Shown here: positions 286 to 23,030 of the stretch, piece after piece | How the letters are laid out: the number at the start of each line of letters is the position of its first letter | Numbering within the stretch: the stretch's first letter is position 1 | From: an uncultured Clostridium sp. | GTDB lineage: Bacteria > Bacillota_I > Bacilli_A > RF39 > UBA660 | DNA length: 35,677 nucleotides | Direction: 5' to 3' | Assembly: GCA_964589375.1 (NCBI GenBank) | Contig: CAZPSA010000006.1 | Location: forward strand, 1 to 35,677 | Program-made: the position numbers and the translations under genes | Notes under the pieces: model-generated | The model's input: the letters and a program-made list of their open reading frames with translations, nothing else | Told to the model about the DNA's origin: nothing | Databases searched by the model: none

Positions 286-613
286 AACTTTACTTATAAC
301 TTAATAAAAAGTAAAGCGACTAATGAATAGATAATAATAAACAATAATATTGTATGAAAATCTCTTTTATTCATGTTATATCACGCTCCCATCTTTTTTA
401 AGATGGAGCGAGCACTCAATCTGTTAGGTATTTCCTAAAAAGTAATATATTATATTAATTATACTAAGCCAAGAAAAATACGCACATTCTTTCGTAAATA
501 ATATTTGCGATTTTTTAAAATTATTTAACAATTTTGCAGCAAAAAATTACACCCAAAAAACATTATACAATTAAAAAGTATACTTAATTCACCATAAATA
601 TACTTCTCATATT

Positions 614-1381
614 CTAAATATTTTGATAATGTTTTAATTCTTCTTTAGAAGATATTGAAATTGTTTCACTAAGTTTTACTTTTTTATTACCCACTTCATA
701 GATTAATAACTCATCATTATTATATTCCGTTTTTTTAGTATAGGAATTTAACTTTTTAAGTTCTTCTTCAGTTAATTTATCTAAATAAATAATCTTATAC
801 TTATCATTAGTTTTCTGTAATATGCTACTTAAAGCAGCTATATTAAAAGCATTTTCATAGTTTATTTTTTCATTAATTAAAGCAATATATTCCTTTTTCT
901 TACCCTTATATATACTTGTTAACTTTTTCATTGTTATTGAAGTATACTCGCTTAAGTCTACTGCTAATAAAGAACTGTACTCATCATCAGTAAGTTTATT
1001 AATCTTCTTAAAATTTTCGGTATAAGCAACATCTAAAGTTGGAAAATAAGTATTTTCTTTCTTATCAATTGTTAATATAAGTTCTTCTTTATCAAATGAG
1101 GCTATATATGCTTTCTTATTTCCACAACCTAACTTAACTACATTCGAACTACTATTAAAATGATAATTATGACAATTTTCAAATTCTACCATTGCTACAT
1201 TATTCTTTAAATATTCAAAATTATTATCCTTAAATGAAATTTGGTAAACATCTTCGCCTTCTACTGCATACCAACTATTATTAACAATATTATCATCTAA
1301 TTTATCACTAAAATCATAAATAAGTAATCCAAAAACAAAGAGTATTACTAAAATCACTAATAAAATAATATTTTTTTTCAT
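614..1381 (-). CDS. hypothetical protein with N-terminal signal-anchor
   Basis: 255-aa ORF. Hydrophobic N-terminus MKKNIILLVILVILFVFGLLIY. No recognisable motif. Confidence 0.5.
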   Translation of the reverse strand: MKKNIILLVILVILFVFGLLIYDFSDKLDDNIVNNSWYAVEGEDVYQISFKDNNFEYLKNNVAMVEFENCHNYHFNSSSNVVKLGCGNKKAYIASFDKEELILTIDKKENTYFPTLDVAYTENFKKINKLTDDEYSSLLAVDLSEYTSITMKKLTSIYKGKKKEYIALINEKINYENAFNIAALSSILQKTNDKYKIIYLDKLTEEELKKLNSYTKKTEYNNDELLIYEVGNKKVKLSETISISSKEELKHYQNI

Positions 1382-1401
1382 TTACTACTACACAACCTGT
1401 T

Positions 1402-2223
1402 CTATTTTAAAATAAAATATAAAATTACAATAATTCCTAAAATAATTCGATAATAGCCAAATGCTTTAAAATCATTATTCTTAATATACTTTAATAAGAA
1501 TTTTATGGCAATAAGAGATACGATAAAAGCTGTAATCATGCCAACACTTAAAATAATTATCTCATCTATTGTAAAATTAAAACCAAACTTTAAAAGTTTC
1601 AAAAGTGAAGCTCCAGCCATTACTGGAATTGATAAATAAAAGGTAAAATTTGTTGCGACCTTACGATCTAATCCTATCTCTAAACCACCAATAATAGTAG
1701 AACCACTTCTACTTGTTCCTGGAATTATGGAAAGTACTTGAAACACACCTATCTTTAAGGCATCTAAATAACTCAATTCTTTTATATCATTTACGCGAGC
1801 TTTTTTAGTTTTATTTTTATTTTCAACGATTAAAAACCATATACCATATATTATTAAAGTAACTGCTACTGTCCAAGGATTATAGAATTTGGCATTAATA
1901 TAATCATCAAATAATAATCCAATAATTGCACAAGGTACACAACCTATAATTATTTTAAACCATAAGTTAAATGTGTCCTTAGTGTCTTCTTTAGTTTTGT
2001 TAAATCCCCAAGGAAAAAGCACTTTAAAAGCAGTAAATACTACCGCCATAATAGCACCCAGTTGAATAACTACCTCAAACATTTCCCAAAATTTATCAGT
2101 AACATCTAATTTAATAAATTCATTTGCTAATATCATATGACCAGTACTACTTATTGGTAGCCACTCAGTCACACCCTCTATTATACCAATAATAATAGTT
2201 TTAACAATATTTTTTATTAACAT
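1402..2223 (-). CDS. uppP: undecaprenyl-diphosphate phosphatase UppP (BacA)
   Basis: 273 aa. Near-exact UppP N-terminal signature GIIEGVTEWLPISSTGHM plus FEVVIQLG. Multi-pass hydrophobic profile. Confidence 0.9.
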   Translation of the reverse strand: MLIKNIVKTIIIGIIEGVTEWLPISSTGHMILANEFIKLDVTDKFWEMFEVVIQLGAIMAVVFTAFKVLFPWGFNKTKEDTKDTFNLWFKIIIGCVPCAIIGLLFDDYINAKFYNPWTVAVTLIIYGIWFLIVENKNKTKKARVNDIKELSYLDALKIGVFQVLSIIPGTSRSGSTIIGGLEIGLDRKVATNFTFYLSIPVMAGASLLKLLKFGFNFTIDEIIILSVGMITAFIVSLIAIKFLLKYIKNNDFKAFGYYRIILGIIVILYFILK

Positions 2224-2285
2224 ATTTTATCCTCTTTTCATCTTTCTTTACATTTATAGCCTATTAATATATATATAATTACCTA

Positions 2286-3044
2286 TTATTTATTAATAGA
2301 TGTTTTATTTTTTTGAATTTTATATACTATTTTTAGTTGCAATGAATAAGGAATAAATCTAGAAAAGAAAATACCTAGTTTTATTTTTAAAGAAGGAATT
2401 ATAATCATTTTTCCTTTTAAAGTCTTATCTACTGCATATTTAGCTACATAAGTACTAGTTAATGCTTTAGTATTAAACTTTCCTCCAGCTACATTATTAA
2501 AATTTGTATCTACTGGTCCTGGACATAAAGCACTGACTTTAACTTTACTATTTCTAATTTTTAATTCTTCATTTATAGCCATTGATAATTTTAAGACATA
2601 GTTTTTAGATGCATAGTAAGTTCCTAAATATGGTCCTGCTAAGAAACCAGCAGATGATGCAACATTTAAAATTTTACCTTCATTTCTTTTTACCATATCT
2701 TTTAAAAATAATTTAGTTAAAACATGAACGGCCGTTATATTAAGGTTAATCATACTAAGTTCTTTGGCTAAGTCTGTTTCATCAAAATAACCAAATAAAC
2801 CAAAACCAGCATTATTAATTAAAAAATCTATCTTTTCATCTTTAACTTTTTCATATAAATTTAAAACTTCGTCTAAATTATTTAAATCGCATACTATGCT
2901 TTTCGCATTTTTGCACATTTTTTCAACATCTTTTAATTTATCTTTATTGCGGGCTACTAATATTAATTCATAGTTTAGTTCATTTAAATATAATGCGATG
3001 TCTTTGCCAATACCGCTACTAGCTCCTGTAATAAGTGCTTTCAT
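2286..3044 (-). CDS. short-chain dehydrogenase/reductase (SDR) family oxidoreductase
   Basis: TGASSGIGK Rossmann motif at the N-terminus, NNAG motif, and catalytic YxxxK (YYASK). Confidence 0.8.
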   Translation of the reverse strand: MKALITGASSGIGKDIALYLNELNYELILVARNKDKLKDVEKMCKNAKSIVCDLNNLDEVLNLYEKVKDEKIDFLINNAGFGLFGYFDETDLAKELSMINLNITAVHVLTKLFLKDMVKRNEGKILNVASSAGFLAGPYLGTYYASKNYVLKLSMAINEELKIRNSKVKVSALCPGPVDTNFNNVAGGKFNTKALTSTYVAKYAVDKTLKGKMIIIPSLKIKLGIFFSRFIPYSLQLKIVYKIQKNKTSINK

Positions 3045-3652
3045 TCTTTTATCATTTTCCTTTCAATAATTTTATTAATAACTTGTAATACAATAAAACC
3101 TAATATAAATCCACCAACTATATCTGATGCATAATGAACTCCTAAATATATTCTACTTATTCCAATTGATAATATAACAAATGAAAGTAACATCATAATT
3201 AGTAATTTAATATTTTTATTCATTTCACTATTCTTTATTAAATAAATTATTCCTCCATAAAAGCATATACTTCCCATTGCATGACCTGAAGGAAAACTAA
3301 ATCCAGTTTCTTCGATTAATCTTAATATTAAAGGTCGATTTCTTTGAATAATGTTTTTGACAATTAAATTAATTAAAGTTGATACAATCGTAAGTAATAT
3401 GATATATAATCCTCTTTTTTCTTGCCAAATTAAAGGAATAAGAAATAATAAGCAAAATATAATAATAGTTAAAGGATTAGCAAGTACTGTTATCATTTTC
3501 ATAATACTTGTTAAAGTACTACTTTTAAAACTAATAATAAAATTATATATTGTATTATCAAACCAACTAATATTATTAGTAATAATTAGAAATGTCCATA
3601 TAATAAATAAAACTATTAATAAAATGATTTTTATGTCTAAATTCTTCTTCAT
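3041..3652 (-). CDS. PAP2-family phosphatase, BcrC-like candidate undecaprenyl-pyrophosphate phosphatase
   Basis: All three PAP2 motifs are present: K..RNRP, PSGHAMGS and SRIYLGVHYASD. Multi-pass membrane protein whose start overlaps the SDR gene stop (ATGA). Confidence 0.8.
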   Translation of the reverse strand: MKKNLDIKIILLIVLFIIWTFLIITNNISWFDNTIYNFIISFKSSTLTSIMKMITVLANPLTIIIFCLLFLIPLIWQEKRGLYIILLTIVSTLINLIVKNIIQRNRPLILRLIEETGFSFPSGHAMGSICFYGGIIYLIKNSEMNKNIKLLIMMLLSFVILSIGISRIYLGVHYASDIVGGFILGFIVLQVINKIIERKMIKE

Positions 3653-3692
3653 AAAATAATTATATTAAATATTAAAAAAATTTACTAGATAA

Positions 3693-4124
3693 TTAGTAAA
3701 TCTCTTGACATATATTAGTCTCTGGTCGATAAAAGCAATGATTTTTATAGCTTCCAGAATATGGTTGATCATACCAGGTTACTTTACAAGTATTTTTTCC
3801 TGGTGCATAAAACCATAATGCATGAGTAGCAGGATAATAATATTCACCTTTTAAGCATCTTTTTGCTAAATCTTTTTCTTTTGTAGTACTACTTCCATTA
3901 AATAAAGAACTATTAATTCCCGAAAAACCCCCAGGACTTTGATAAACAACATCACTAATTGTTCGAATGTTTTTAAACGTATAGCAAGATGCTAATGCCC
4001 GATTTACAATTACATTACCAACCATAAGCATACCTAAATTTCCTTCATTTAAAGCTTCTGCTCGCATTAATCTGGCCATTAAATCAAGTTCTTTTGTAGT
4101 ATAGTTAATTACCATATATATCAC
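3693..4124 (-). CDS. cwlJ: CwlJ/SleB-family spore cortex-lytic cell wall hydrolase
   Basis: 143 aa. DLMARLMRAEALNEG..GMLMVGNVIVNR and a C-terminal HCFY..E..C segment match the CwlJ layout and length (B. subtilis CwlJ is 142 aa). Confidence 0.8.
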   Translation of the reverse strand: MIYMVINYTTKELDLMARLMRAEALNEGNLGMLMVGNVIVNRALASCYTFKNIRTISDVVYQSPGGFSGINSSLFNGSSTTKEKDLAKRCLKGEYYYPATHALWFYAPGKNTCKVTWYDQPYSGSYKNHCFYRPETNICQEIY

Positions 4125-9094: not shown

Positions 9095-10158
9095 AATATT
9101 TGAAAAAAATAGTTTTAATTATACTGGGATTTTTACTAACTGGTTGCTATAATCATATGGAATTAAATAAAATGGCTATTGTTTCCTTAATCGCGGTCGA
9201 TTATCAAAGTGAAGAATTTATTGTAACAATTGAAGTAAGAGAAAATAAAAAAGAAGATGAAAATTCTTCTGCTATCTATAAAGCAACTGCTTCTTCCTTG
9301 GCAAATGCCCTTCAAGAAATAGCCGTATCTCTTAATAAAGCATTATATTTTATTGATTTAGATACTGTGATCATAACTAAAGAAGCCGCTAATGAAAAAT
9401 TAGACTTTATTATCGATTATTTAACTAGGGAAAGTACAATAAGTGGTAATTTTAATATTCTAATTAATGATGAAATAGATAAAACTATAAATAGTATTAA
9501 GGATAAAGGCGAAGTGGCTGGTAAGTTTTTAAAAGAAACTGTAGTAAGTGAATTTAACAATATTGTTAATATAAAATTTAATGACTACTTAGAAAACTAC
9601 ATATCAAAATATTATGATTTAATCCTTCCTAAAATTGTAAATGAAGATGATGAAATAAAAATAAATAAAGCCGTTATTTTTAGTGATAAAAAAATAATTG
9701 GTGAGCTAGATTTTGATATGGTGCAGTTATACAATCTTTTAATTAACAATAATAATCCAACTCTCTTTAATATTAATTATGAAGAAAAAAATATTATATT
9801 TAAAGTAATTAATTCGAAGGCAAAAATAACATATCAAAATGATAAAATAAATATAAATTTAGACATTACCGGTTCGATTGCGGAAGCTGAAGATGTCGAT
9901 GTAAATAATAAAAAAAATATAGAAAAAATCCGGTTACAAATAGAAAATAATATTAAAGCTAATGTTACAGGCTTTATTCGATTTCTTATTACTAAAAATA
10001 GTGATATCTTAGGATTTAGAAAAGATTATTATAATGCTATGAGAAAAAATATTGATGATATTAATAGCCTTAAAGTAAATATAGAAACTAACGTTAAATT
10101 AGATCGTAATGGCTTAATCTTTGGTCCAATTGGAGAAGAACATGAAAAAAATAACTAA
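9091..10158 (+). CDS. spore germination receptor C subunit, Ger(x)C lipoprotein
   Basis: Lipobox LLTGCY, then MELNKMAIVSLIAVDY, which is typical of Ger(x)C N-termini. Start overlaps the A-subunit stop (ATGA). Confidence 0.8.
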   Translation: MKYLKKIVLIILGFLLTGCYNHMELNKMAIVSLIAVDYQSEEFIVTIEVRENKKEDENSSAIYKATASSLANALQEIAVSLNKALYFIDLDTVIITKEAANEKLDFIIDYLTRESTISGNFNILINDEIDKTINSIKDKGEVAGKFLKETVVSEFNNIVNIKFNDYLENYISKYYDLILPKIVNEDDEIKINKAVIFSDKKIIGELDFDMVQLYNLLINNNNPTLFNINYEEKNIIFKVINSKAKITYQNDKININLDITGSIAEAEDVDVNNKKNIEKIRLQIENNIKANVTGFIRFLITKNSDILGFRKDYYNAMRKNIDDINSLKVNIETNVKLDRNGLIFGPIGEEHEKNN

Positions 10159-11116
10159 TTTTGAAAATTATAGTTTAATTTATTTATTAATCTTTCCTTT
10201 ATTTATGGGAATAGGATTTTCTAAAATTATAAAGAATGTAGGAACTGATGCTTGGATTAGTGCGATTATTGGTAGTATTTTAGGTTTACTTATTAATTTT
10301 CTTATTAAAAAATTACCGAATGAAGATAATAAATTTTTTAAAACCGCGTATAGTATTGGCCTATTAGTTATATCTACTATGTTAATTGGTAAACTAGTTA
10401 GTTCTATTTATTTAAATAGGACGCCGGCTTGGTTTGTCTTAATTCCTGGTGGCATTTTAATTTACTATACTTCGCTTAAAGGAAAAAAAGCCTTATATCA
10501 AAGTGCTAGCTTATTAATAATTATCCATCTGCTCTTATTTTTAATAACTGCATTAACTCTTATTCCAACAATTAATATTGATTACTTTAAGCCTATTTTA
10601 GTAACAAGTTTTTCCAAAATATTTTCTTCGGCTCTAGATTTTGCCTTGATTAGTACTACTCCAATGATATTAGTAGATAATTTTAAAGAAAGATATAATT
10701 ATAAAGTATACTTATTTTCTTCTATTTTATTAATTATTATGATTTTTTGTACTATTGGTAATTTGGGAGTGGAAATATCAAAATTGTATCGTTACCCAGA
10801 ATATATGGTTTTAAAAAAAGTATCAATATTAAATTTTATTGAAAATATTGAAAATATTCTTTTTTCTCTTTGGATTATTAATATTTTTACTATAACGAGT
10901 TTATCATGTATTAATATTAAAGAAGAAACAAATTCTAAAATATTATTTTTAATTTTAATTTTAATGATAATTATTGTTGGGGGGTTTATATTAAATAATT
11001 ATAAAACTTCAAATTTCTTTTTAGACTATTATACTTACATGCTTTTAGGTTTATTTATTTTATTTATATTAAGTAAAATATTTAGAAGGAAGCATAACAA
11101 TTCTATATCCAAATAA
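10121..11116 (+). CDS. spore germination receptor B subunit (GerAB/GerKB family, APC-type permease)
   Basis: 331-aa polytopic membrane protein immediately after the A and C subunits. The true start may be downstream of 10121 (38-nt overlap). Confidence 0.75.
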   Translation: MVQLEKNMKKITNFENYSLIYLLIFPLFMGIGFSKIIKNVGTDAWISAIIGSILGLLINFLIKKLPNEDNKFFKTAYSIGLLVISTMLIGKLVSSIYLNRTPAWFVLIPGGILIYYTSLKGKKALYQSASLLIIIHLLLFLITALTLIPTINIDYFKPILVTSFSKIFSSALDFALISTTPMILVDNFKERYNYKVYLFSSILLIIMIFCTIGNLGVEISKLYRYPEYMVLKKVSILNFIENIENILFSLWIINIFTITSLSCINIKEETNSKILFLILILMIIIVGGFILNNYKTSNFFLDYYTYMLLGLFILFILSKIFRRKHNNSISK

Positions 11117-11395
11117 AAACTAGTAAAAATGAGAAATTACTAGTCTTTTTATTATTCTAAAATTATTAAATTTATTATTTTTTAGCAATAGTTGATATAT
11201 GTTTTTTAACTTCTAACATTGCGGATTATTATTATACCAGCAGAACCAACACTACCAGCAATTCCACCATCACCAGTATTAGATTTTATTTGCTGGTACC
11301 TCTTTTGATAACTTTAACTATGCATTATCACTTACTAATTTTATCATTTTGGTTTCAATTGCTCCAATGATATTTGATGCTAAGTTTTAGACTAG

Positions 11396-11425
11396 CAAAA
11401 AAGTCTATGATATTAACCATAGACC
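11396..11425 (-). terminator. intrinsic terminator of ftsZ, made by a copy of the intergenic palindromic repeat
   Basis: Minus-sense GGTCTATGGTTAATATCATAGAC hairpin (7-bp arms GTCTATG/CATAGAC) followed by TTTTTT, 26 nt downstream of the ftsZ stop. Confidence 0.45.
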
Positions 11426-11450
11426 TTATAAAATCCAAGTATTTTTAGTT

Positions 11451-12503
11451 TTAGAAATTATCTCTATCTCTTAAAAATGGTGGAATATCAAAGTCACTAT
11501 CGTCTTGAATATTCTTAGTATTGGCACTTTCCCTATTAGCTTCGGCTGCTCTTTGTTCATCTTCAAAACCGGTGGCAATAACAGTTACTATTACCTCATC
11601 ATTTAAGTTTTCATTAATAACAGCACCAAAGATGATATTGATATCATTATTAGATGCTTGTCTTACAACCTCAGCGGCATCTTCTGCTTCGAACAAAGTT
11701 AAACTTGTGCCACCGGTAACATTAATTATCGCATCAGTTGCACCATCTATACTTGTTTCTAAAAGTGGACTAGATACAGCTTGTTTAGCAGCTTCAATAG
11801 CTCTATTTTCACCAACACCTAAACCAATACCAATTAAAGCAGAACCTCTTTTTTCCATTACAGTTTTAACATCAGCAAAGTCTAAGTTTACTAATCCTGA
11901 TACGGCAATTAAATCACTAATTGATTGTACTCCACGATGTAAAACATTATCAACTTCTTTAAAGGCATCTATCATCGGTGTTTGTTTATCAATAATTTCT
12001 CTTAATCTATCATTAGGAATAACAATCAAAGTATCAACATGTTTCTTTAACTCTTCAATTCCTAAGATAGCTTGTTCCATTCTCCTTTTACCTTCAAATC
12101 TAAAAGGCTTAGTAACAATACCTACAGTAAGTGCTCCTAAATCTGCGGCAATTTCAGCAATAACGGGAGCTGCACCTGTACCAGTGCCACCACCCATACC
12201 ACAAGTAACAAAAATCATATCAGCACCTTTTAATGCTTCCTTAATTTCCTCCTTGCTCTCTAAAGCTGCTGCTCTACCAACTTCCGGATTAGCCCCAGCT
12301 CCTAGGCCATTAGTAATATTTGCCCCAATCTGAAGTTTATTTTCAGCTTTAGAAACATTTAAAACCTGTAAATCAGTATTTGCTACAATGAACTCTACAC
12401 CTTTAACTCCAGACTCTATCATACGGTTAACGGCATTACAACCACCGCCACCAACACCAATTACTTTTATTTTTGCAATTTGATCCATCTCTAGTCCAAA
12501 CAT
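11451..12503 (-). CDS. ftsZ: cell division GTPase FtsZ
   Basis: [13 protein letters not shown] and [10 protein letters not shown] tubulin-like signatures. 350 aa. Confidence 0.95.
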
Positions 12504-12518
12504 AAAATCTCCTCTTTC

Positions 12519-13760
12519 TTAATTGTCAAAAAAGTAACTTACTACTTTTCCTAATATAGAATCTTCAGCAATTACATTTTTCTTACCAGTATCTGTCATC
12601 TTTTCAATATCGCTTTCTGTAACTGCACTAAAATCCCTATTTCTCAAACTTAACTTTTCATTAAAATAAATGAGCATACCAACATCTACACTATAAGAAT
12701 TATTCCTCACTCCAATATTATTGATATTACCAACTTTGGCAGTACCACCATAAATAGAATTTACAGCATGAGGAAAATCTTTAATTTCCGCTAGTCCTCC
12801 TGTTATAATTATATAACTAATTTCCTTTTTTGTTAAGTGGTTAATAGAATTTTTCACTATTTTTAACATTTCTGCTAGTTTTTTACTTACAACTTGAGTT
12901 AATTCATACTGATTTATCTTAACATTAGTACCATCTTTAGTTATAACCTCACACTTTTCCTTAACATCACAACGTGCCATTACGGCTTTAGCTAAATGTT
13001 CTTTTAAATAAGTGGCTTCTTTCTTACGTAAGTTAAAAGTAAGTGCTATTTCTCTATCAATATCAATTCCACCAATATCAAGAGTTTGATTATTAATATA
13101 TACTCCCTTACTAAAAACACTAATATTAGTCTTAGTATCCCCTAAATTAACTATTACTACATTCTTTTCATCTAATTCAGGTGTTTTAAAATTATAATAG
13201 TCAACTAATCCGGTAGTAGTTATATCTATAACATCTAACCCTACCTCATTTAAAAAATTGATCATATCATAAACTTGTCTTTTACCAGCAGATACAATAA
13301 TACTCTTAAGTCCTAAAGTATTACCTACTTTACCATAAGGACTATCTGTATCATTACCACCAACTTTAAAAACAACAGGAATATTAGCAATCATCTCATC
13401 ATTAGGGTTAATTTCGTTATTAGAAGACTCTTTTAAAACTTTTAAAATATCCTTACTACTTACTACTTTATCTTCACTTTCAACATTCACTTGATATTCT
13501 ACCATCTTAAACTCATTATAATCAGTTGGAATATTCAAAATAACTTTCTTTATTCTAAAAGACAATTTACTTTCAGCTTCATCTAAAAGTAAATTAAGAG
13601 TACTTCTTAAGGCTTCTTTATCAACTATTGTATTATACTTAAAACCATTAGTACTCTTTTTAAGCGCTAATAAAACATGAATTTTATCATTAATAAATTC
13701 AGCCACAACTAATTTAACACTACTTGAACCTATATCTAAAGCACTAAATATCTTCCTCAT
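12519..13760 (-). CDS. ftsA: cell division protein FtsA
   Basis: 413 aa. N-terminal ALDIGSSSVKLVVAE actin-fold motif. Lies immediately upstream of ftsZ. Confidence 0.9.
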   Translation of the reverse strand: MRKIFSALDIGSSSVKLVVAEFINDKIHVLLALKKSTNGFKYNTIVDKEALRSTLNLLLDEAESKLSFRIKKVILNIPTDYNEFKMVEYQVNVESEDKVVSSKDILKVLKESSNNEINPNDEMIANIPVVFKVGGNDTDSPYGKVGNTLGLKSIIVSAGKRQVYDMINFLNEVGLDVIDITTTGLVDYYNFKTPELDEKNVVIVNLGDTKTNISVFSKGVYINNQTLDIGGIDIDREIALTFNLRKKEATYLKEHLAKAVMARCDVKEKCEVITKDGTNVKINQYELTQVVSKKLAEMLKIVKNSINHLTKKEISYIIITGGLAEIKDFPHAVNSIYGGTAKVGNINNIGVRNNSYSVDVGMLIYFNEKLSLRNRDFSAVTESDIEKMTDTGKKNVIAEDSILGKVVSYFFDN

Positions 13761-13887
13761 AAAATCAACCTTTACTTTAAAGAAATTATACTATAAAGTC
13801 ATATATATTTCAAATAAAACAATAAGCCTTGATTTTTCATTTTTTTAAATATATTATAAACAAGTATAGTTATTTAAGGAGGTTAGA

Positions 13888-15060
13888 ATGGTAAATTATC
13901 AAGAAATAATAAAAACATATAAATTATTAATAGTTAGAAATAATATTAGTTATAAAGAATTAAAAAGCAATAATATTTCGCCAAGATGTGTCAAACATAT
14001 GCTTAGTTTACAAATGATTGAAAAGAAACCTAAAACTTCTTTAATAAACCCGATTTATCAAATTAAAGACTTAACAAAACTTTATGAAATAACTTATAAA
14101 TGCGATTTTAAAGATAAAGAAATATTTTTAAGATATTTATATGACTTAAATTATTATACTTATGATTTATATATAGAACTACTTAAAATAGCGTTTAAGA
14201 AAAAAGATTATGATCTTTTATTTGATATTATAGATAAAATAATTTTAAATTATAATAACAATAATTCTATTCAAAATGGAATAACTAGTATCTTGTATAC
14301 CCTATCTTTTATTACTAAAATACCACCTAAATATAATAATAGAATTAAGAAAAATATAAATGAAGATAATATAGATGATAACTTAGCAAGTTTTAAAATA
14401 ACTCTATTAGAAAGTCAAAAAGCTTTAATTCATAAAAGAAATAATACTATCAAACGTTTAATTTCAAATAATGAATTTCAAAATTTAAGTTCTTTTTTAG
14501 AAATAGAAAGTGAAAAAGTAACAAGTTTAGGGACAATATATGAATTAATTAAGTATATTAATGAAACTATTTTAAGACTATTTAAAGGGGAAAAAATATG
14601 GATTAAAAATACCACTGAATTAAATATTTCTACTCTTATTTATAGTAATAATTTTAATATTGCCTTAAAACTATACATAATTATTCAAAATAAACTAAAT
14701 TTAAATGATGATAATTTAAAAGTAATACTAGAAAAAATAGTTTTAATAAGTAAAATGATGAGTAATATTACCGATGATGATTTAAAGCAAATTGCGGATT
14801 TAATAAGTGATGAATTTACGGTTGATAAAGTAGCAAATTTATTTAAATTAAGTTTAGAAGATAAAACTATAGTAACTTTATATGTTATAAGAAAAGCATT
14901 AATTAATGATAATACCAAACTAGCGCAAAGTCTTTTGAATAAGCCATATATAACAAGCTGTGATAGTTCAAATCTAACAATTAAAGGGCTTTTAAGGGAA
15001 ATTTATAAATTAAAAGAAGAACTAGGGCCTAAAAAATTAATAATTGAGAATAATAAGTAA
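13888..15060 (+). CDS. hypothetical protein predicted to be all-helical
   Basis: 390 aa. Good RBS AAGGAGG. No motifs. Transcribed divergently from ftsA. Confidence 0.5.
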   Translation: MVNYQEIIKTYKLLIVRNNISYKELKSNNISPRCVKHMLSLQMIEKKPKTSLINPIYQIKDLTKLYEITYKCDFKDKEIFLRYLYDLNYYTYDLYIELLKIAFKKKDYDLLFDIIDKIILNYNNNNSIQNGITSILYTLSFITKIPPKYNNRIKKNINEDNIDDNLASFKITLLESQKALIHKRNNTIKRLISNNEFQNLSSFLEIESEKVTSLGTIYELIKYINETILRLFKGEKIWIKNTTELNISTLIYSNNFNIALKLYIIIQNKLNLNDDNLKVILEKIVLISKMMSNITDDDLKQIADLISDEFTVDKVANLFKLSLEDKTIVTLYVIRKALINDNTKLAQSLLNKPYITSCDSSNLTIKGLLREIYKLKEELGPKKLIIENNK

Positions 15061-17284: not shown

Positions 17285-17749
17285 TTAACATACACAATCT
17301 ACATAACAATCATTTAAACATCTAACAATACAACAACAATCTAAGTTCATTGTAAAGAAGCTATTAGTTGCAATATATGGTTGGCTGTTACAACAAGATT
17401 GATCTGGATTTGTTGCTAAAACTCTAAAAGTACAGCAATTTCCTTCTATCTTTTCAACTCTAAATACATTTGAGCAACCTTCACAAGAACTATCAACAGA
17501 TGGTGTTGAGCATGTAGTGCTTAAATCTTTGCTAGTTGGCATACTTAGTGGAACTCCATTACCACAACACATATATATCATAACTGGTCTAGTATTGCAA
17601 ATAAGGCAATTATTTCCCCCACCAAGCATTGGTCTATCACATGAGTCTAAACAATTTTCTGGACAAGCATTTTGTTGTAAAATACAAATAACTTTTAAAG
17701 TTTCACAAATACAATTACCTTCATTTTGATTATTACACATTTTTTTCAC
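17285..17749 (-). CDS. cysteine-rich protein (25 Cys in 154 aa), no signal peptide
   Basis: MKKMCNNQNEGNCICETLKVIC ... DCCCIVRCLNDCYVDCVC. Contains CC and CCC clusters. RBS GGGTGA. Confidence 0.6.
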   Translation of the reverse strand: MKKMCNNQNEGNCICETLKVICILQQNACPENCLDSCDRPMLGGGNNCLICNTRPVMIYMCCGNGVPLSMPTSKDLSTTCSTPSVDSSCEGCSNVFRVEKIEGNCCTFRVLATNPDQSCCNSQPYIATNSFFTMNLDCCCIVRCLNDCYVDCVC

Positions 17750-18151: not shown

Positions 18152-18339
18152 CTTATGTATTTTTTTTAAGACAACATAATAATAAAGTCATTATTTTAAA
18201 ATATCAGATTATAATTCATCTTTTTCGGGTTGTTTTTTATAAACTTTATATTTCTTTATACTTTTTATTAATTTTTCAACATTATTTTCATCATAGTATA
18301 GTTTTATAAATTCTATTGATTGTTCATATTTTTCGCTCT

Positions 18340-19923
18340 CTAATTTACCACAAATGGAGCAGCTGCTGTTCCGGTTCCACCCGAGTTAATTGTGGTGGTA
18401 CTCTTGAGAGAAAGACTTGGTCGCAAACCATAGTCAGATATCTGCACGCTGGTGCCACCCACTTTACCATCGCCATTCGCTCGCCACATGAGCGCACGGT
18501 TATCATTGTAGAAGTAGTATGGCGACAAAGTCCACCAATAAGTAGTGGAACTTACATTTCCATTTAAATAATTAGATGTTGATACAGTTTCCCAATCTTT
18601 ATATCCAGCATATGCTAATTCATCATATGTTAATAAGCCTATTTTATAATCTAAATTACCATTTCCATTGGTTGTATCACTTACAGTAAATTTAGAAAGT
18701 TTTCCACCTTCATTATCATTTGGACATATTAGACTTGGTGTTCCACTAGTATATCTATTATTTGCACCATAATCTGATCTTGAAGTACTACTTCCTTTTC
18801 CATCTCCCGTTGTACTTTTATCATTACACCAGATAGTATCAGCAAGTTTACTTTCGTATGTAGCAATATTATTTTCATACCATGTTTCTAAATTAGTCAA
18901 GATTGTACTTTTAGTTTCGTTCGCATGAGTTGAGCCATAATCACTTCCGGTTGGTGAACCATACATGAAACCAACATATGCATTACTATTGTAATTTGTA
19001 TTAAAGGCTGTTGTATATGAGGCACCACTGTATCTAGCAAAAGCTAAATTGTTTCCAGTTTGGGTACAATCAGTACTTGAGTAATTATATAGTACTAGTT
19101 TAATTGATCCATCGCCCGTTACTCTGACTATTCGCCAGCACATTCCCGCAAAAGATACAAAATTATTTTGAACATTACCTCTAAAATAATAGCTTATTCC
19201 ATAATCATCTTCAGCTGCTGCCATGACTGCTTCAGTACTTAATGATACTTCTGTTCCTGGGGTTGTTAGGGGTTCTGTTGGATTATTATAATTTGCTTTT
19301 ATTCCAGCTAAGAGTGTTTCACTTGCTGCTTCGCTCCATCCAGATGGGGCAGAATTATATGCTTCTGTTCCAGCACCCTCTATTTCAATATGAGCAGCAA
19401 ACTTAGCTTTTTGATATTTGTTTTGATCTTCGTTATTATCTTTGAAATATATTTTTAATGTATAATTATGTTCTTTGTCTTCTCCTGCTATGAAATAGCC
19501 TTGTCCTAGTTCTTCGGTTGTTGTTCCACTTATTGTTCCATCTGTTATACTAGCTATTACTTTACCATTATCTGATGTGTTTACACTATCTAAGCTATAA
19601 GTTAAACTATCTTCAAATTCGTTATTATCTATGACTAGTTTAACTTTATAATACATTGCTAGTTCCGTAGTATTATTACCTGTTACTTTAAACTTTTTAG
19701 TTATCCATTCTTCATCTCTTGGATATATTTTAGTTGCACTTACATCTAAAGCATTTGAGTTATCACTATAGGTTATTGATAATTCGCCAGCATCCATATA
19801 AATAGTTGATGAGCTTTCACTTCCCGTTATAATGGCACTAAAGTAAGCAAAAGATACGCCCGCAATAACTACTACTAATAATAAAACTATTGCAAGTATC
19901 AAACTTTTCTTATTGTTTTTCAT
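18340..19923 (-). CDS. secreted protein with a TasA/camelysin-type (SipW-cognate) signal peptide and a large Gly/Thr/Ser/Tyr-rich C-terminal region
   Basis: The N-terminus ends in AGVSFAYFSA, like the TasA/CalY FAYFSD signal motif. 527 aa. The 3'-terminal 200 bp are about 48% GC. Confidence 0.6.
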   Translation of the reverse strand: MKNNKKSLILAIVLLLVVVIAGVSFAYFSAIITGSESSSTIYMDAGELSITYSDNSNALDVSATKIYPRDEEWITKKFKVTGNNTTELAMYYKVKLVIDNNEFEDSLTYSLDSVNTSDNGKVIASITDGTISGTTTEELGQGYFIAGEDKEHNYTLKIYFKDNNEDQNKYQKAKFAAHIEIEGAGTEAYNSAPSGWSEAASETLLAGIKANYNNPTEPLTTPGTEVSLSTEAVMAAAEDDYGISYYFRGNVQNNFVSFAGMCWRIVRVTGDGSIKLVLYNYSSTDCTQTGNNLAFARYSGASYTTAFNTNYNSNAYVGFMYGSPTGSDYGSTHANETKSTILTNLETWYENNIATYESKLADTIWCNDKSTTGDGKGSSTSRSDYGANNRYTSGTPSLICPNDNEGGKLSKFTVSDTTNGNGNLDYKIGLLTYDELAYAGYKDWETVSTSNYLNGNVSSTTYWWTLSPYYFYNDNRALMWRANGDGKVGGTSVQISDYGLRPSLSLKSTTTINSGGTGTAAAPFVVN

Positions 19924-19979
19924 ACGCCATTTTTCCTCTACTTTCTTTCCTATATTATACTGATAATAGGTATAACTAT

Positions 19980-20055
19980 GTCAAGTTAATTTTCTATATC
20001 AAAAATGTCTACGATATTAACCAAATAAAAACTTGAACGATTGTCCAAGTTAATT
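19980..20055. repeat. intergenic palindromic repeat copy, includes the likely thyX terminator
   Basis: GTCAAGTTAATTTT then 7 nt then AAAAATGTCTACGATATTAACC. Minus-sense hairpin CTTGGACaatcGTTCAAG followed by TTTTTATTT just after the stop of 20063..21265. Confidence 0.4.
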
Positions 20056-20062
20056 ATTATTA

Positions 20063-21265
20063 TTAGATTTTTCTAACTAATTGTATTCCTTCTGAAAAAT
20101 TACAGCATGAAGAACACTTAAAGTCTGGGAAAGTACATCTAGCTCCATTAGTTCGTTTCTTTATATCTCCTGCTAAAGGACTACCTGAATTTTCTAAAGC
20201 TTCCTTATATTTTAATAAAGTTTCTCTAGTTTGTTGGACTATTTCTAATTGAGCAGCCGTACAAAGTCTTTCCTTACATTTTAAAATGAAATCATCATAT
20301 TTACCAGATTCACAAATTCTGATAAACTCACCTTGAGGATTTACATCTTTAACTACTCTCATATCCTTTAACCATTCATCAACTAACATTTCATCATCAG
20401 CAATTATTGGTGGAACATAATATTCTTTTTCATCTAACATTTCCATTTGATAATCAAGAGTTCTATGACGCAGAGCATGGGCAAGTTGAGCAAAAGAACC
20501 CTTATAAGTTGTAATATAAACCTTACCAAAATAATCATCAGTTTCATCTAAATTGTGACCAAATAATGATAAATGGCGACATTTTTCATTTTGCATTAGC
20601 CTTTTCTCTAAGACATTTACTTCATCTAAAGCAGTTAATAACTCTTGCATAGCTTGAGCTAATTTTCTTTCAAAAGGAATATCATTATTAGCGTTCTTAA
20701 TAAACTCTTGTAACCATGACGCTATATAGTTAATTTGTCTTAAAGATGTAGAATAAATCATCTGTGTTGGCATAAATACAGTAACTAAATATCTTGCATT
20801 TTCTTGAGCTAATTTTTGAATCTTAGCATCATTATAAAAATCACCATATTTTTCTTTGATTTTTAATTTAAAAATATCAATCCACTTATTATAAAGGGTT
20901 TCTTCTGCCTCAGTTATAATTGAACCTTCTTGTCTAATAACTGGAGTATAACGAGCAGATTTTTCACTAGTAGTATATTGATGTTCATTATTAATTACCA
21001 TTGCTAAAATTTTAGGTATATTTTGGAGATTAAAATTAATCGTAATATGATCATACACACTATGATGACCATTATTTAATGTCATATTAACTCTACGCAT
21101 TGTTTTTTCTTCTGGCTCTTGTTCTAAATGGGAAAATCCTTCTTTATCATAACAAATACCAGCAATTTTTCCAGATAATTTTATTGCTTCTTCTTTATCA
21201 AAAGTACCATCTGGTTTTAAATACTTGTTTGGTAAAATACTTACCTTAATCTTTGTTTGTTCCAT
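20063..21265 (-). CDS. ThyX-fold (FAD-dependent thymidylate synthase-like) protein, divergent and unusually long
   Basis: The N-terminal 110 aa align in pattern with T. maritima ThyX (AGICYD / NGHHSVYDH / SARY against ARVSFD / HGHETPFEH / SGRY). The RHR of the ThyX motif is NEH here. There is a 150-aa C-terminal extension ending in CTFPDFKCSSCCNF. Confidence 0.5.
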   Translation of the reverse strand: MEQTKIKVSILPNKYLKPDGTFDKEEAIKLSGKIAGICYDKEGFSHLEQEPEEKTMRRVNMTLNNGHHSVYDHITINFNLQNIPKILAMVINNEHQYTTSEKSARYTPVIRQEGSIITEAEETLYNKWIDIFKLKIKEKYGDFYNDAKIQKLAQENARYLVTVFMPTQMIYSTSLRQINYIASWLQEFIKNANNDIPFERKLAQAMQELLTALDEVNVLEKRLMQNEKCRHLSLFGHNLDETDDYFGKVYITTYKGSFAQLAHALRHRTLDYQMEMLDEKEYYVPPIIADDEMLVDEWLKDMRVVKDVNPQGEFIRICESGKYDDFILKCKERLCTAAQLEIVQQTRETLLKYKEALENSGSPLAGDIKKRTNGARCTFPDFKCSSCCNFSEGIQLVRKI

Positions 21266-21383: not shown

Positions 21384-22546
21384 TTATTTAACTATTACTC
21401 TAATTATATTTTTCTTACCTTTATGTAAAACAAAATCATTTGGGCATTCATAGTTTGGATCAAGTATTTTATCTTGATTAACCATAATTCCCCCTTGAAT
21501 AACTAGTCTTCTAGCTTCACTTTTAGATGGTGCTAATTTACTTTCAACTAAGATATTTAAGATATTATTATCGCTTACAGTAACTTTTGGCATTTCATCA
21601 GTTACTTCACCATTAAATATTTTTTCACTAATCTCCTTAGCTTTTTTAGCTTCATCTACCCCATGTAAATCTTTTACTACTTCATAAGCAAGAGTTTTTT
21701 GGGCTAATCTATTTTCCGGATTATTTTCAACTTCTAAAGCTAGATTTTCAATTTCTTCTTTAGATAAGAAAGTAAATACCTTTAAATATTCAACAACTTT
21801 AGAATCATCAGAATTAAGTAGGTATTGATATATTTTATATGGAGATGTTTTCTCTTTATCTAGCCATAAAGCATTACCTTCACTTTTACCAAACTTTTTT
21901 CCTGTCGCGTCTAAAATAAGTGGCATGGTAAAGCCATAAGCTTCTTTACCTTCTATTTTTCTAATAAGCTCAATACCAGTTGTAATATTTCCCCATTGAT
22001 CTGAACCTGCTGCTTGTAAAACACAGTTTTTATTATTAAATAGATGTAAGAAATCAAATCCTTGTAAAAGAGTATATGAAAATTCAGCATAAGTAATACC
22101 AGTTTCTAAACGTCTTTGAATTATATCTTTTCCTAGCATATAATTAACATTAATATATTTACCTATATCTCTTAAAAAATCTAGAAATGTTATATCCTTA
22201 GTTCAATCATAATTATTAACTATTTCAGCTTTTCCTTCTAAAAGAATGGTTATTTGTTTCTTTAAACCTTCAATGTTTTTTAATACTGTTTCCTTGGATA
22301 TTATTTCTCTTTCGGCTGTTGGTCTTGGATCGCCAATTAGTCCAGTTGCTTCGCCAACCAATATTATAGGGTTATGACCATGTCTAGCTAATCTTTTAGC
22401 AGTTACAAATGAGGCATAATGACCTATATGTAAACTATCCGCGGTTGGATCTGTTCCTAAGTAAAAAGTTATAGTTTTTCTTCTAATTCTGGTGAGCTAA
22501 TGTCTTTAACTACACCTCTCCATTTTAGTTCTTCAAAAAATGTCAT
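21384..22546 (-). pseudogene. tyrS: tyrosyl-tRNA synthetase gene (tyrS) disrupted by a -1 frameshift and an in-frame TGA
   Basis: ATG at 22546 gives MTFFEELKWRGVVKDISSPELEEKL then a stop. A -1 shift in an A5 run (about 22447-22455) restores ITFYLGTDPTADSLHIGHY (HIGH motif). A TGA at 22203-22205 sits exactly at the conserved Trp of NNYDW. The track ORF 21384..22139 carries KFGKS (the KMSKS motif) and a C-terminal S4 domain. Confidence 0.6.
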
Positions 22547-22547
22547 G

Positions 22548-23030
22548 TTAATCCTCCTTATTTGTTGAACCGATACCACCAGCTCTAACATTTGTTATTT
22601 CTTCTTCATCATCTACAGTTAAATATTTCATAAAGACAGCTTGAGCAATTCGATCAAAAGCTTTTACTTCAATATCTTTATCACCATGATTAATTATTTT
22701 AACTTTAAAGTGTCCTTCATTATCTGGATTATTATAAAAATCACTATCTATAACTCCCACACTATTAGCTAAAGTTGCACAATATTTATAACCAAATGAG
22801 CTTCTAGTATAAAGGTATAATACCTCATCATCATTCATACATACTTTTAATCCAGTTGCAAAAACTTTAGCTTCTTTTGGTTTTATTACTTCATCTTTTA
22901 AAGCACAAATATCATAACCAGCAGAATGTTTAGTGCTTCTTTTTGGTAAAGTATATTTTTCATATAATTCTTTATCCTCGGAAATATCTTTTTTAAATTG
23001 TTCAAAACTAATTTTTTCAAATTTTCGCAT
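22548..23030 (-). CDS. dut: dUTP diphosphatase (dUTPase)
   Basis: Motifs AGYDI, RSS, GVIDSDF and RAGGIGSTNK. 160 aa. Its stop lies 2 nt from the tyrS start. Confidence 0.75.
   Translation of the reverse strand: MRKFEKISFEQFKKDISEDKELYEKYTLPKRSTKHSAGYDICALKDEVIKPKEAKVFATGLKVCMNDDEVLYLYTRSSFGYKYCATLANSVGVIDSDFYNNPDNEGHFKVKIINHGDKDIEVKAFDRIAQAVFMKYLTVDDEEEITNVRAGGIGSTNKED

Follow-up and report, generated by a model that had tools for sequence, protein, structure and literature searches.

The GC-rich 3' end of a gene on contig CAZPSA010000006.1, from an uncultured Clostridium sp., is very probably the variable cassette of a diversity-generating retroelement (DGR) rather than foreign DNA. The gene product is a secreted surface protein that resembles TasA, and the cassette would lie in its lectin-like tip. 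By the window we mean the whole 35,677-bp contig. A DGR works from a noncoding template repeat (TR), whose transcript is copied into cDNA by a dedicated reverse transcriptase (RT) that misincorporates opposite template adenines; this cDNA then replaces a variable region (VR). Applied to this gene, the process would have written the last ~35 residues of the lectin domain (amino acids [aa] ~465 to 500, nucleotides [nt] ~18420 to 18535). Only codons spelled AAY in the template would change on copying, and the window copy would be either a remote target of a DGR located elsewhere in the genome or the frozen relic of a DGR that has decayed. The assignment of this segment draws on homology of position, a shared compositional signature, and the behavior of the protein family.

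Codon composition of the gene and its 3' end

The translation of open reading frame (ORF) 18340..19923 (-) begins with MKNNKKSLILAIVLLLVVVIAGVSFAYFSA (527 aa). In the following features, GC1, GC2, and GC3 denote the GC content at the first, second, and third codon positions, and labels beginning with L and P denote loci and proteins of relatives.

18340..19923, reverse strand: whole gene, 527-aa secreted or surface protein (ORF list; TAG stop codon at 18340-18342)
18343..18552, reverse strand: compositionally anomalous segment, aa 458-527 (GC3 0.457, z = 7.5 versus other ORFs; A depleted at codon position 3)
18427..18519, reverse strand: hypervariable core, aa 469-499, the putative DGR VR (entropy; homology to VRs with TR partners in L027 and L054)
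18418..18429, reverse strand: GGTTTGCGACCA (G-L-R-P), conserved 3' boundary of the variable stretch (R501 and P502 invariant in two alignments)

The contig has a GC content of 26.4%. GC by codon position was computed for 37 nonoverlapping ORFs of at least 90 aa. Over its full length, the target gene has raised GC1 and GC2 (0.39 and 0.45) and a GC3 of 0.195, compared with 0.09 to 0.22 in the other genes. In 50-codon windows, the final ~75 codons are set apart by a GC3 of 0.44 to 0.48. The segment from aa 458 to 527 is rich in Gly, Trp, and Arg codons, with a GC2 of 0.57, and its GC3 stands 7.5 standard deviations above the background of 0.134 ± 0.043 (maximum, 0.257) given by 1,408 sliding 70-codon windows over the other 36 ORFs. 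The step is sharp, with GC3 rising from 0.05 to 0.6 within ~15 codons around nt 18550 to 18535. A reading of the letters that preceded this analysis (the sequence-only reading) had described the 3' end as GC rich, and this is confirmed at nt 18343 to 18552 by the total GC of 0.486 and the GC3 of 0.457; the sliding windows show that the break is real, lies at the codon level, and is abrupt. The same reading took the whole gene to be GC elevated. Total GC is indeed raised in the gene body (0.32 for aa 1 to 457), by way of codon positions 1 and 2 (0.39 and 0.43), but codon usage there is native, with a GC3 of 0.153 that is ordinary for this genome. The raised GC of the body is therefore due to amino acid composition and not to codon usage.

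Variation in the family and template repeats beside homologs

Nearly all proteins of the family to which this gene belongs are annotated as hypothetical. More than 4,297 homologs were found in a 90%-clustered collection, the best of them full length at 50 to 59% identity, and an exhaustive profile-free search of cluster representatives at 50% identity returned 5,719, 3,786, and 794 sequences at E values of ≤1e−3, 1e−10, and 1e−30, respectively. The homologs come mostly from gut metagenome-assembled genomes (MAGs) labeled “Bacilli bacterium,” on contigs of up to 1.15 Mb that often hold several copies. A scan of species-representative genomes gave 79 loci, with at least 10 copies in one MAG from the Hadza gut (CAKOOH) and 15 or more in a second (CAKOOU). 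Family members are cut by the ends of many MAG contigs, with the match starting at base 1 to 300 of the contig (L014, L016, L017, L021, L024, L061, and others). Paralogs fragment assemblies in this way, so that the true number of copies in a genome may be higher than counted.

In protein alignments, the stretch from the motif YW(W)TLSP to the motif LRP is the exception in an otherwise highly conserved family. In a 48-sequence family alignment, per-column entropy peaks at aa 476 to 495 (2.27 bits versus 0.81 overall), and 21 of the 31 codons of the core are NNY in the window gene. As in known DGR targets, the variable stretch lies at the C-terminal end of a C-type-lectin-like domain. Most of the 79 loci show the GC3 jump in the same position (tails of 0.25 to 0.53 on bodies of 0.06 to 0.17), and a minority of copies do not have it. 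Eleven paralogous VRs from three MAG assemblies of closer relatives (CAKOOH, CAKOOC, and one more) were aligned as nucleotides and consist of an invariant scaffold broken by variable dinucleotides. None of the 35 invariant columns in the VR is A, while A makes up 31 of 83 and 16 of 66 invariant columns in the two flanks. Judged from this alignment, the A-free invariant scaffold is the footprint of adenine-specific mutagenesis. Fixed variable positions on a nonadenine scaffold, a property of DGR targets, are thus present at the level of the family; the window copy is a single sequence.

When the fetched loci were searched by blastn with every tail, extra copies appeared just downstream of several targets. 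These are the TRs, and they read Asn at every variable codon. The cassette at L027, a locus of the CAKOOU genome, is laid out as follows.

9992-11614: target gene (family member)
11727-11856: TR, conceptual translation NWWLSSPNNYNGSNANEWNVNGSNGNINTNNVNNTNAFRP
12109-12555: MutS_I-domain ORF of 148 aa, between the TR and avd (Pfam MutS_I)
12545-12886: bAvd-like ORF (38.9 bits; DivGenRetAVD, E value of 1e−8)
12870-13868: RT (RVT_1, 71 bits)

This order matches the published DGR “architecture D” with an MSL accessory gene (PMC5758913). In both L027 and L054, the homology between TR and VR runs through and ends in a conserved G+C-rich block of L/F-R-P codons (...CGCCC...) equivalent to the G-L-R-P of the window gene. 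Comparison of each TR with its VRs gave the following counts of changed positions.

L027, adjacent target: A changed at 20 of 39, non-A at 1 of 89
L042, same genome as L027 but a different contig: A changed at 13 of 39, non-A at 1 of 89
L054, adjacent target on CP091726 (chromosome-level MAG record): A changed at 12 of 31, non-A at 1 of 70
L064, 84 kb away on CP091726: A changed at 15 of 31, non-A at 2 of 70

A single TR on CP091726 matches two targets, L054 and L064. L042 and L064 are both served remotely, and copies of the family that, like the window gene, have no neighboring TR or RT can therefore be DGR targets. Copies with low-GC3 tails that share a genome with a TR (L026, L034, L038, and L077) differ from it at ~40% of non-A positions and, by this comparison, are not templated. 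The RT at L054 is fragmented. A homolog of the MutS_I ORF is found downstream of the remote target at L064 (11729-12067), with no RT adjoining.

These templates offer an account of the compositional break. Because every adenine in a template is mutable, templates steer clear of A at silent positions and retain it only at the first two positions of AAY codons, where variation is wanted. In the intact templates of L027, L045, and L054, the frequency of A at codon position 3 (A3) is 0.00 to 0.03. VRs copied from such templates inherit the low A3, and across 76 loci, the mean A3 is 0.09 in VRs versus 0.46 in gene bodies, with A3 and GC3 negatively correlated (r = −0.82). Adenine is avoided in the window tail too, with an A3 of 0.15 in aa 463 to 502 versus 0.43 in the body of the gene. 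GC3 jumps in the tail because A-poor templates force C, G, or T endings where 43 to 46% of third positions are otherwise A. Template adenine avoidance accounts for the GC-rich tail without foreign DNA. When a lectin-domain gene in an AT-rich genome abruptly loses third-position adenine at its 3' end, this marks a DGR-templated segment, even if TR and RT are off the contig, and metagenomic DGR surveys state that targets whose template or RT lies on another contig escape detection (PMC8144416).

Present activity, decay, and alternative explanations

Several observations count against a DGR origin or against an active DGR for the window copy. No TR was found in the whole window by a generic repeat search, by blastn at word size 7, or by a search in which A in the template could stand for any VR base. 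No RT was found there either, as ORFs of at least 90 aa gave no RVT_1 match and tblastn with the L027 RT gave none. A matching template was likewise absent from pattern scans of metagenome contigs (two scaffold patterns) and viral contigs (one pattern), each with 0 matches; the CAKOOH-type pattern gave 0 matches on viral contigs and, in the fetched loci, only the known VRs. With no TR in reach, adenine-specific differences between TR and VR are therefore seen only in relatives, and the DGR origin of the window copy is inferred. Within or beside the variable columns, M479 (ATG), K487 (AAA), and Q494 (CAG) are underivable from AAY codons, which hints at a different template codon or at later point mutation by drift. 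In the clade nearest to the window, the DGR looks dead, with remnants at L020 and frozen VRs: within 90%-identity clusters of this clade, VRs are identical across samples, with 0 variable VR columns versus 26 to 37 variable columns outside. Finally, the first AlphaFold2 (AF2) model, built from a 48-sequence alignment, was poor (predicted local distance difference test [pLDDT] score of 49.5) and was discarded, and the second, which was used, is moderate (76.6).

The tail may be a fossil VR, written by an ancestral DGR that has since decayed, with a composition that has not yet drifted to the AT bias of the genome. This is a subcase of the DGR origin favored here, differing from it only on present activity, and we give it an even chance of being correct; once a DGR origin is granted, present activity and fossil status are roughly balanced. 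At 12085-12631 of L020, 3' of the family member, a 61-aa Avd-like remnant is followed by a 115-aa RT from which the middle has been deleted, so that its N-terminus is fused to the YMDD region, and L020 has no TR. Database relatives of this RT remnant are all 96 to 119 aa long and occur in many assemblies, on many contigs, among them the same large contigs that hold family members. As these relatives are all short and widespread, the truncated gene has been passed down with its reading frame open. L033 is a second independent case of DGR decay, with a TR at 11703-11864 in which a 1-nt deletion shifts the frame and a 31-aa RT remnant at 12049-12141. The identity of orthologous VRs between samples whose gene bodies diverge also speaks for a fossil, as do P0005, which is identical on 31 contigs, the retention of a GC3 of 0.24 to 0.47 by frozen VRs, and the Met, Lys, and Gln codons that place part of the window VR outside the reach of AAY mutagenesis.

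On the other side, the GC3 of the window tail (0.457) is as high as that of VRs beside intact cassettes (0.41 to 0.44), so that there would have been little decay so far. The window protein is only 48 to 59% identical to the decayed clade, and the DGR status of that clade is not transferable to it. VRs are often stable across samples in the clade whose cassette is intact, too, yet the adjacent target there shows two VR alleles. Whichever holds for the window copy, the live and decayed retroelements in this family form a natural series for the growth and death of DGR repertoires.

An extension of the DGR origin is that small-genome, spore-forming gut Bacilli each carry, across the chromosome, 10 to 20 paralogous TasA-like surface or fiber proteins whose lectin tips are rewritten in trans by a single DGR, with the window gene as a live remote member. 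We regard this as unlikely, though it has more than a slight chance. If true, a single-DGR repertoire acting in trans would be a variable adhesive fiber system and not a single variable receptor, and it would exceed the seven targets per DGR element reportedly found in Treponema. One may speculate that the TasA-like domain polymerizes or anchors the protein and so displays the variable lectin tip as an adhesin.

Explanations that need no retroelement, namely, that the tail is kept by gene conversion between paralogs, by selection for Gly, Trp, Arg, Ala, and Pro, or by an overlapping antisense gene, seem very improbable to us. Downstream of the VR, 66 of 84 columns are invariant between paralogs, as conversion or strong purifying selection would produce, and the tail is rich in Gly, Trp, and Arg codons (GC2 of 0.57). 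Conversion homogenizes, however, and cannot make adenine-specific variability on an invariant non-A scaffold, and the third-position effect is beyond the reach of amino acid composition. An 83-aa antisense ORF does span the region (18316-18567, forward strand); it was rejected as a gene, being a chance by-product of the stop-poor, GC-rich patch that lies over the least conserved part of the family.

The sequence-only reading had proposed horizontal acquisition of the gene, or recombination of a C-terminal cassette; a sharp boundary and a tail GC of 0.486 on a 26% GC contig might suggest foreign DNA from a higher-GC organism. We now consider this very improbable, because the codon usage of the body is native (GC3 of 0.153 versus 0.134 ± 0.043), hundreds of vertically related paralogs in related low-GC genomes have tails homologous to this one, both in sequence and in position, with the same jump, the anomaly is specifically a silent-site adenine depletion mirroring that of templates, the junction has no mobile-element genes, tRNA boundary, or repeats, and tblastn gives no phage match. 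Neither foreign codon usage of the whole gene nor absence from relatives, as expected of a horizontal island, was found, and multicopy homologs are present in related genomes. That reading had itself named a C-terminal domain of the same GC in related genomes as evidence that would speak against transfer, and the same break does recur in relatives.

Protein architecture, known systems, and genomic setting

The remaining features of the gene are as follows.

19834..19923, reverse strand: N-terminal hydrophobic helix, aa 1-30, ending in FAYFSA; TasA/CalY-type signal peptide or membrane anchor (sequence; AF2 helix at aa 3-32)
19381..19884, reverse strand: TasA/camelysin-like beta-sandwich domain, aa 14-181 (PF12389 above cutoff)
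18400..19230, reverse strand: DUF6273/C-type-lectin-like domain, ~aa 232-508, with a large insertion (Pfam-matched part, nt 18400-18756)
19975..20002, reverse strand: promoter-like site TTGATA-16-TG-CATAGT, 5' of the start codon (consensus scan only, weak evidence)

The Pfam family Peptidase_M73 (camelysin/TasA, PF12389) matches aa 14 to 181 with 24.9 bits (curated cutoff, 22.5) over profile positions 14 to 187 of 196, and DUF6273 matches aa 390 to 508 with 25.1 bits (cutoff, 23.5) when aa 185 to 527 are scanned alone. Both matches are also precomputed for exactly this protein in a large protein collection. An NCBIfam scan of the whole protein gave nothing useful, and a PDB sequence search with it gave no match. 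The AF2 model used, from a 105-sequence alignment, has a pLDDT of 76.6 and a predicted TM score (pTM) of 0.67 and consists of a helix (aa 3 to 32), a beta-sandwich (aa 38 to 183), and a mixed C-terminal domain, in which the last strands (aa 462 to 472, 476 to 483, and 487 to 492) form beta-hairpins. Foldseek matches to the PDB are weak except for 9qa6 and TasA, and those to viral structures are only low-TM beta-sandwich matches. The domain architecture thus shows a secreted or surface protein made up of a TasA/CalY-type signal or anchor, a TasA/camelysin-like domain, and a C-terminal DUF6273 ligand-binding domain.

The export signal had been described in the sequence-only reading as cognate to SipW. 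The FAYFSA motif is visible and the PF12389 domain exceeds its cutoff, but the profile for such signals, TIGR04088 (cognate_SipW; cutoff, 19), stays below threshold, with 14.6 bits (E value of 0.028) for the window N-terminus and 16.5 for family member P0004. As that reading also stated, no sipW is present in the window: no signal peptidase was found there by Pfam scans of ORFs of at least 90 aa, by a scan for the SGSMxP motif, or by tblastn with the L053 peptidase, and tblastn with a SipW sequence gave no match. A search of the window for other FAYFS-type N-termini returned none besides that of the target gene. At L053, the second gene upstream of a family member encodes an archaeal-type (SipW-class) signal peptidase I (TIGR02228, 93.9 bits; cutoff, 51.85). 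On these comparisons, TasA-type export is a reasonable proposal, plausible at the level of the family and putative for the window gene. The L053 genes form an operon-like row (478-4117) of the signal peptidase I, a 449-aa protein without a Pfam match, and the family member, whose tail has no GC3 jump; this may be the ancestral, nondiversified arrangement. At L020, another TasA-type leader (...GVSYAFYAAIINGNETTTT...) belongs to a short ORF (14650-14844) that lies 3 kb away from the family member, and the genomes of these Bacilli therefore encode further proteins with such an N-terminus.

DGRs, variable proteins of the C-type lectin class, MSL and Avd accessory proteins, and remote targets are established (PMC5758913), and DUF6273 is a published DGR target domain of gut phages, with the VR at its C terminus (PMC10743442, PMC11792537). 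The window protein has no detectable sequence similarity to Mtd of the Bordetella phage, TvpA of Treponema denticola, or LdtA of Legionella. Unlike these proteins, its lectin domain is a DUF6273 with an insertion of ~100 residues, the partner is a TasA/camelysin-like domain in place of a phage-fiber, lipoprotein, or FGE-type context, and the copy is known without a TR or RT. The DUF6273 targets of gut phages (tentaclins and the Faecalibacterium prophage targets) share with the window family the Pfam domain, the C-terminal VR, and the surface beta-hairpin (PMC10743442, PMC11792537). They are fused to Ig-like or tail-fiber modules, whereas the window family is chromosomal, with 10 to 15 or more copies per genome, and tblastn found no match to the window protein in 50,697 phage records. 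TasA and CalY fiber proteins are half the size of the window protein and have no lectin domain, and fiber formation by the window protein is only speculative. The N-terminal DUF6273 of the Thomasclavelia ramosa IgA protease (PDB 9qa6) has 17% identity; its fusion partner is an M64 peptidase, and DGR diversification is not known for it.

No DGR-diversified lectin joined to a TasA/camelysin-type domain was found in the literature searched, nor in the text or supplements of PMC8144416, and a chromosomal DGR-target family of such size and a live-to-dead series of cassettes were not found in that literature. What stands out is the target architecture of TasA/camelysin plus DUF6273 and the expansion of paralogs. 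In gut Bacilli about which little is known, a large, unannotated family joins a biofilm-fiber-type domain to a ligand-binding tip that is hypervariable. The C-terminal module also occurs in other contexts. P0398 (4,905 aa, 22 matched stretches), P0403 (3,528 aa), and P0431 (2,534 aa) are giants with many tandem C-terminal lectin modules, up to 22 stretches.

Family genes stand singly amid housekeeping and sporulation genes. The neighbors at L080 to L082 are SMC, SpoIIP, and SpoIVA, and those in the window are FtsZ/FtsA, GerA, CotZ, MurT/GatD, and ThyX. The promoter-like site upstream of the target gene sits just downstream of a terminator-like hairpin (20030-20051) of the preceding thyX gene. 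ThyX (20063-21265, reverse strand) is unusually long, at 400 aa, with the Thy1 domain only at aa 27 to 178, and on the other side of the target lies a Cys-rich, CotZ-like spore coat protein (17285-17749, reverse strand) with a GC2 of 0.46. Tyrosyl-tRNA synthetase (21384-22591, reverse strand) is split into at least three ORFs, at 22469-22591 (N-terminus), 22203-22361, and 21384-22139, the last covering profile positions 115 to 291 and the C-terminal domains; this could be a pseudogene, the result of frameshift errors in the assembly, or a case of programmed frameshifting. Outside the window, the contig that carries the family member L074 (CAVIQT010000088.1) has 25.7% GC and was assigned to a Phocaeicola vulgatus bin; it is almost certainly misbinned and derived from one of these Bacilli.

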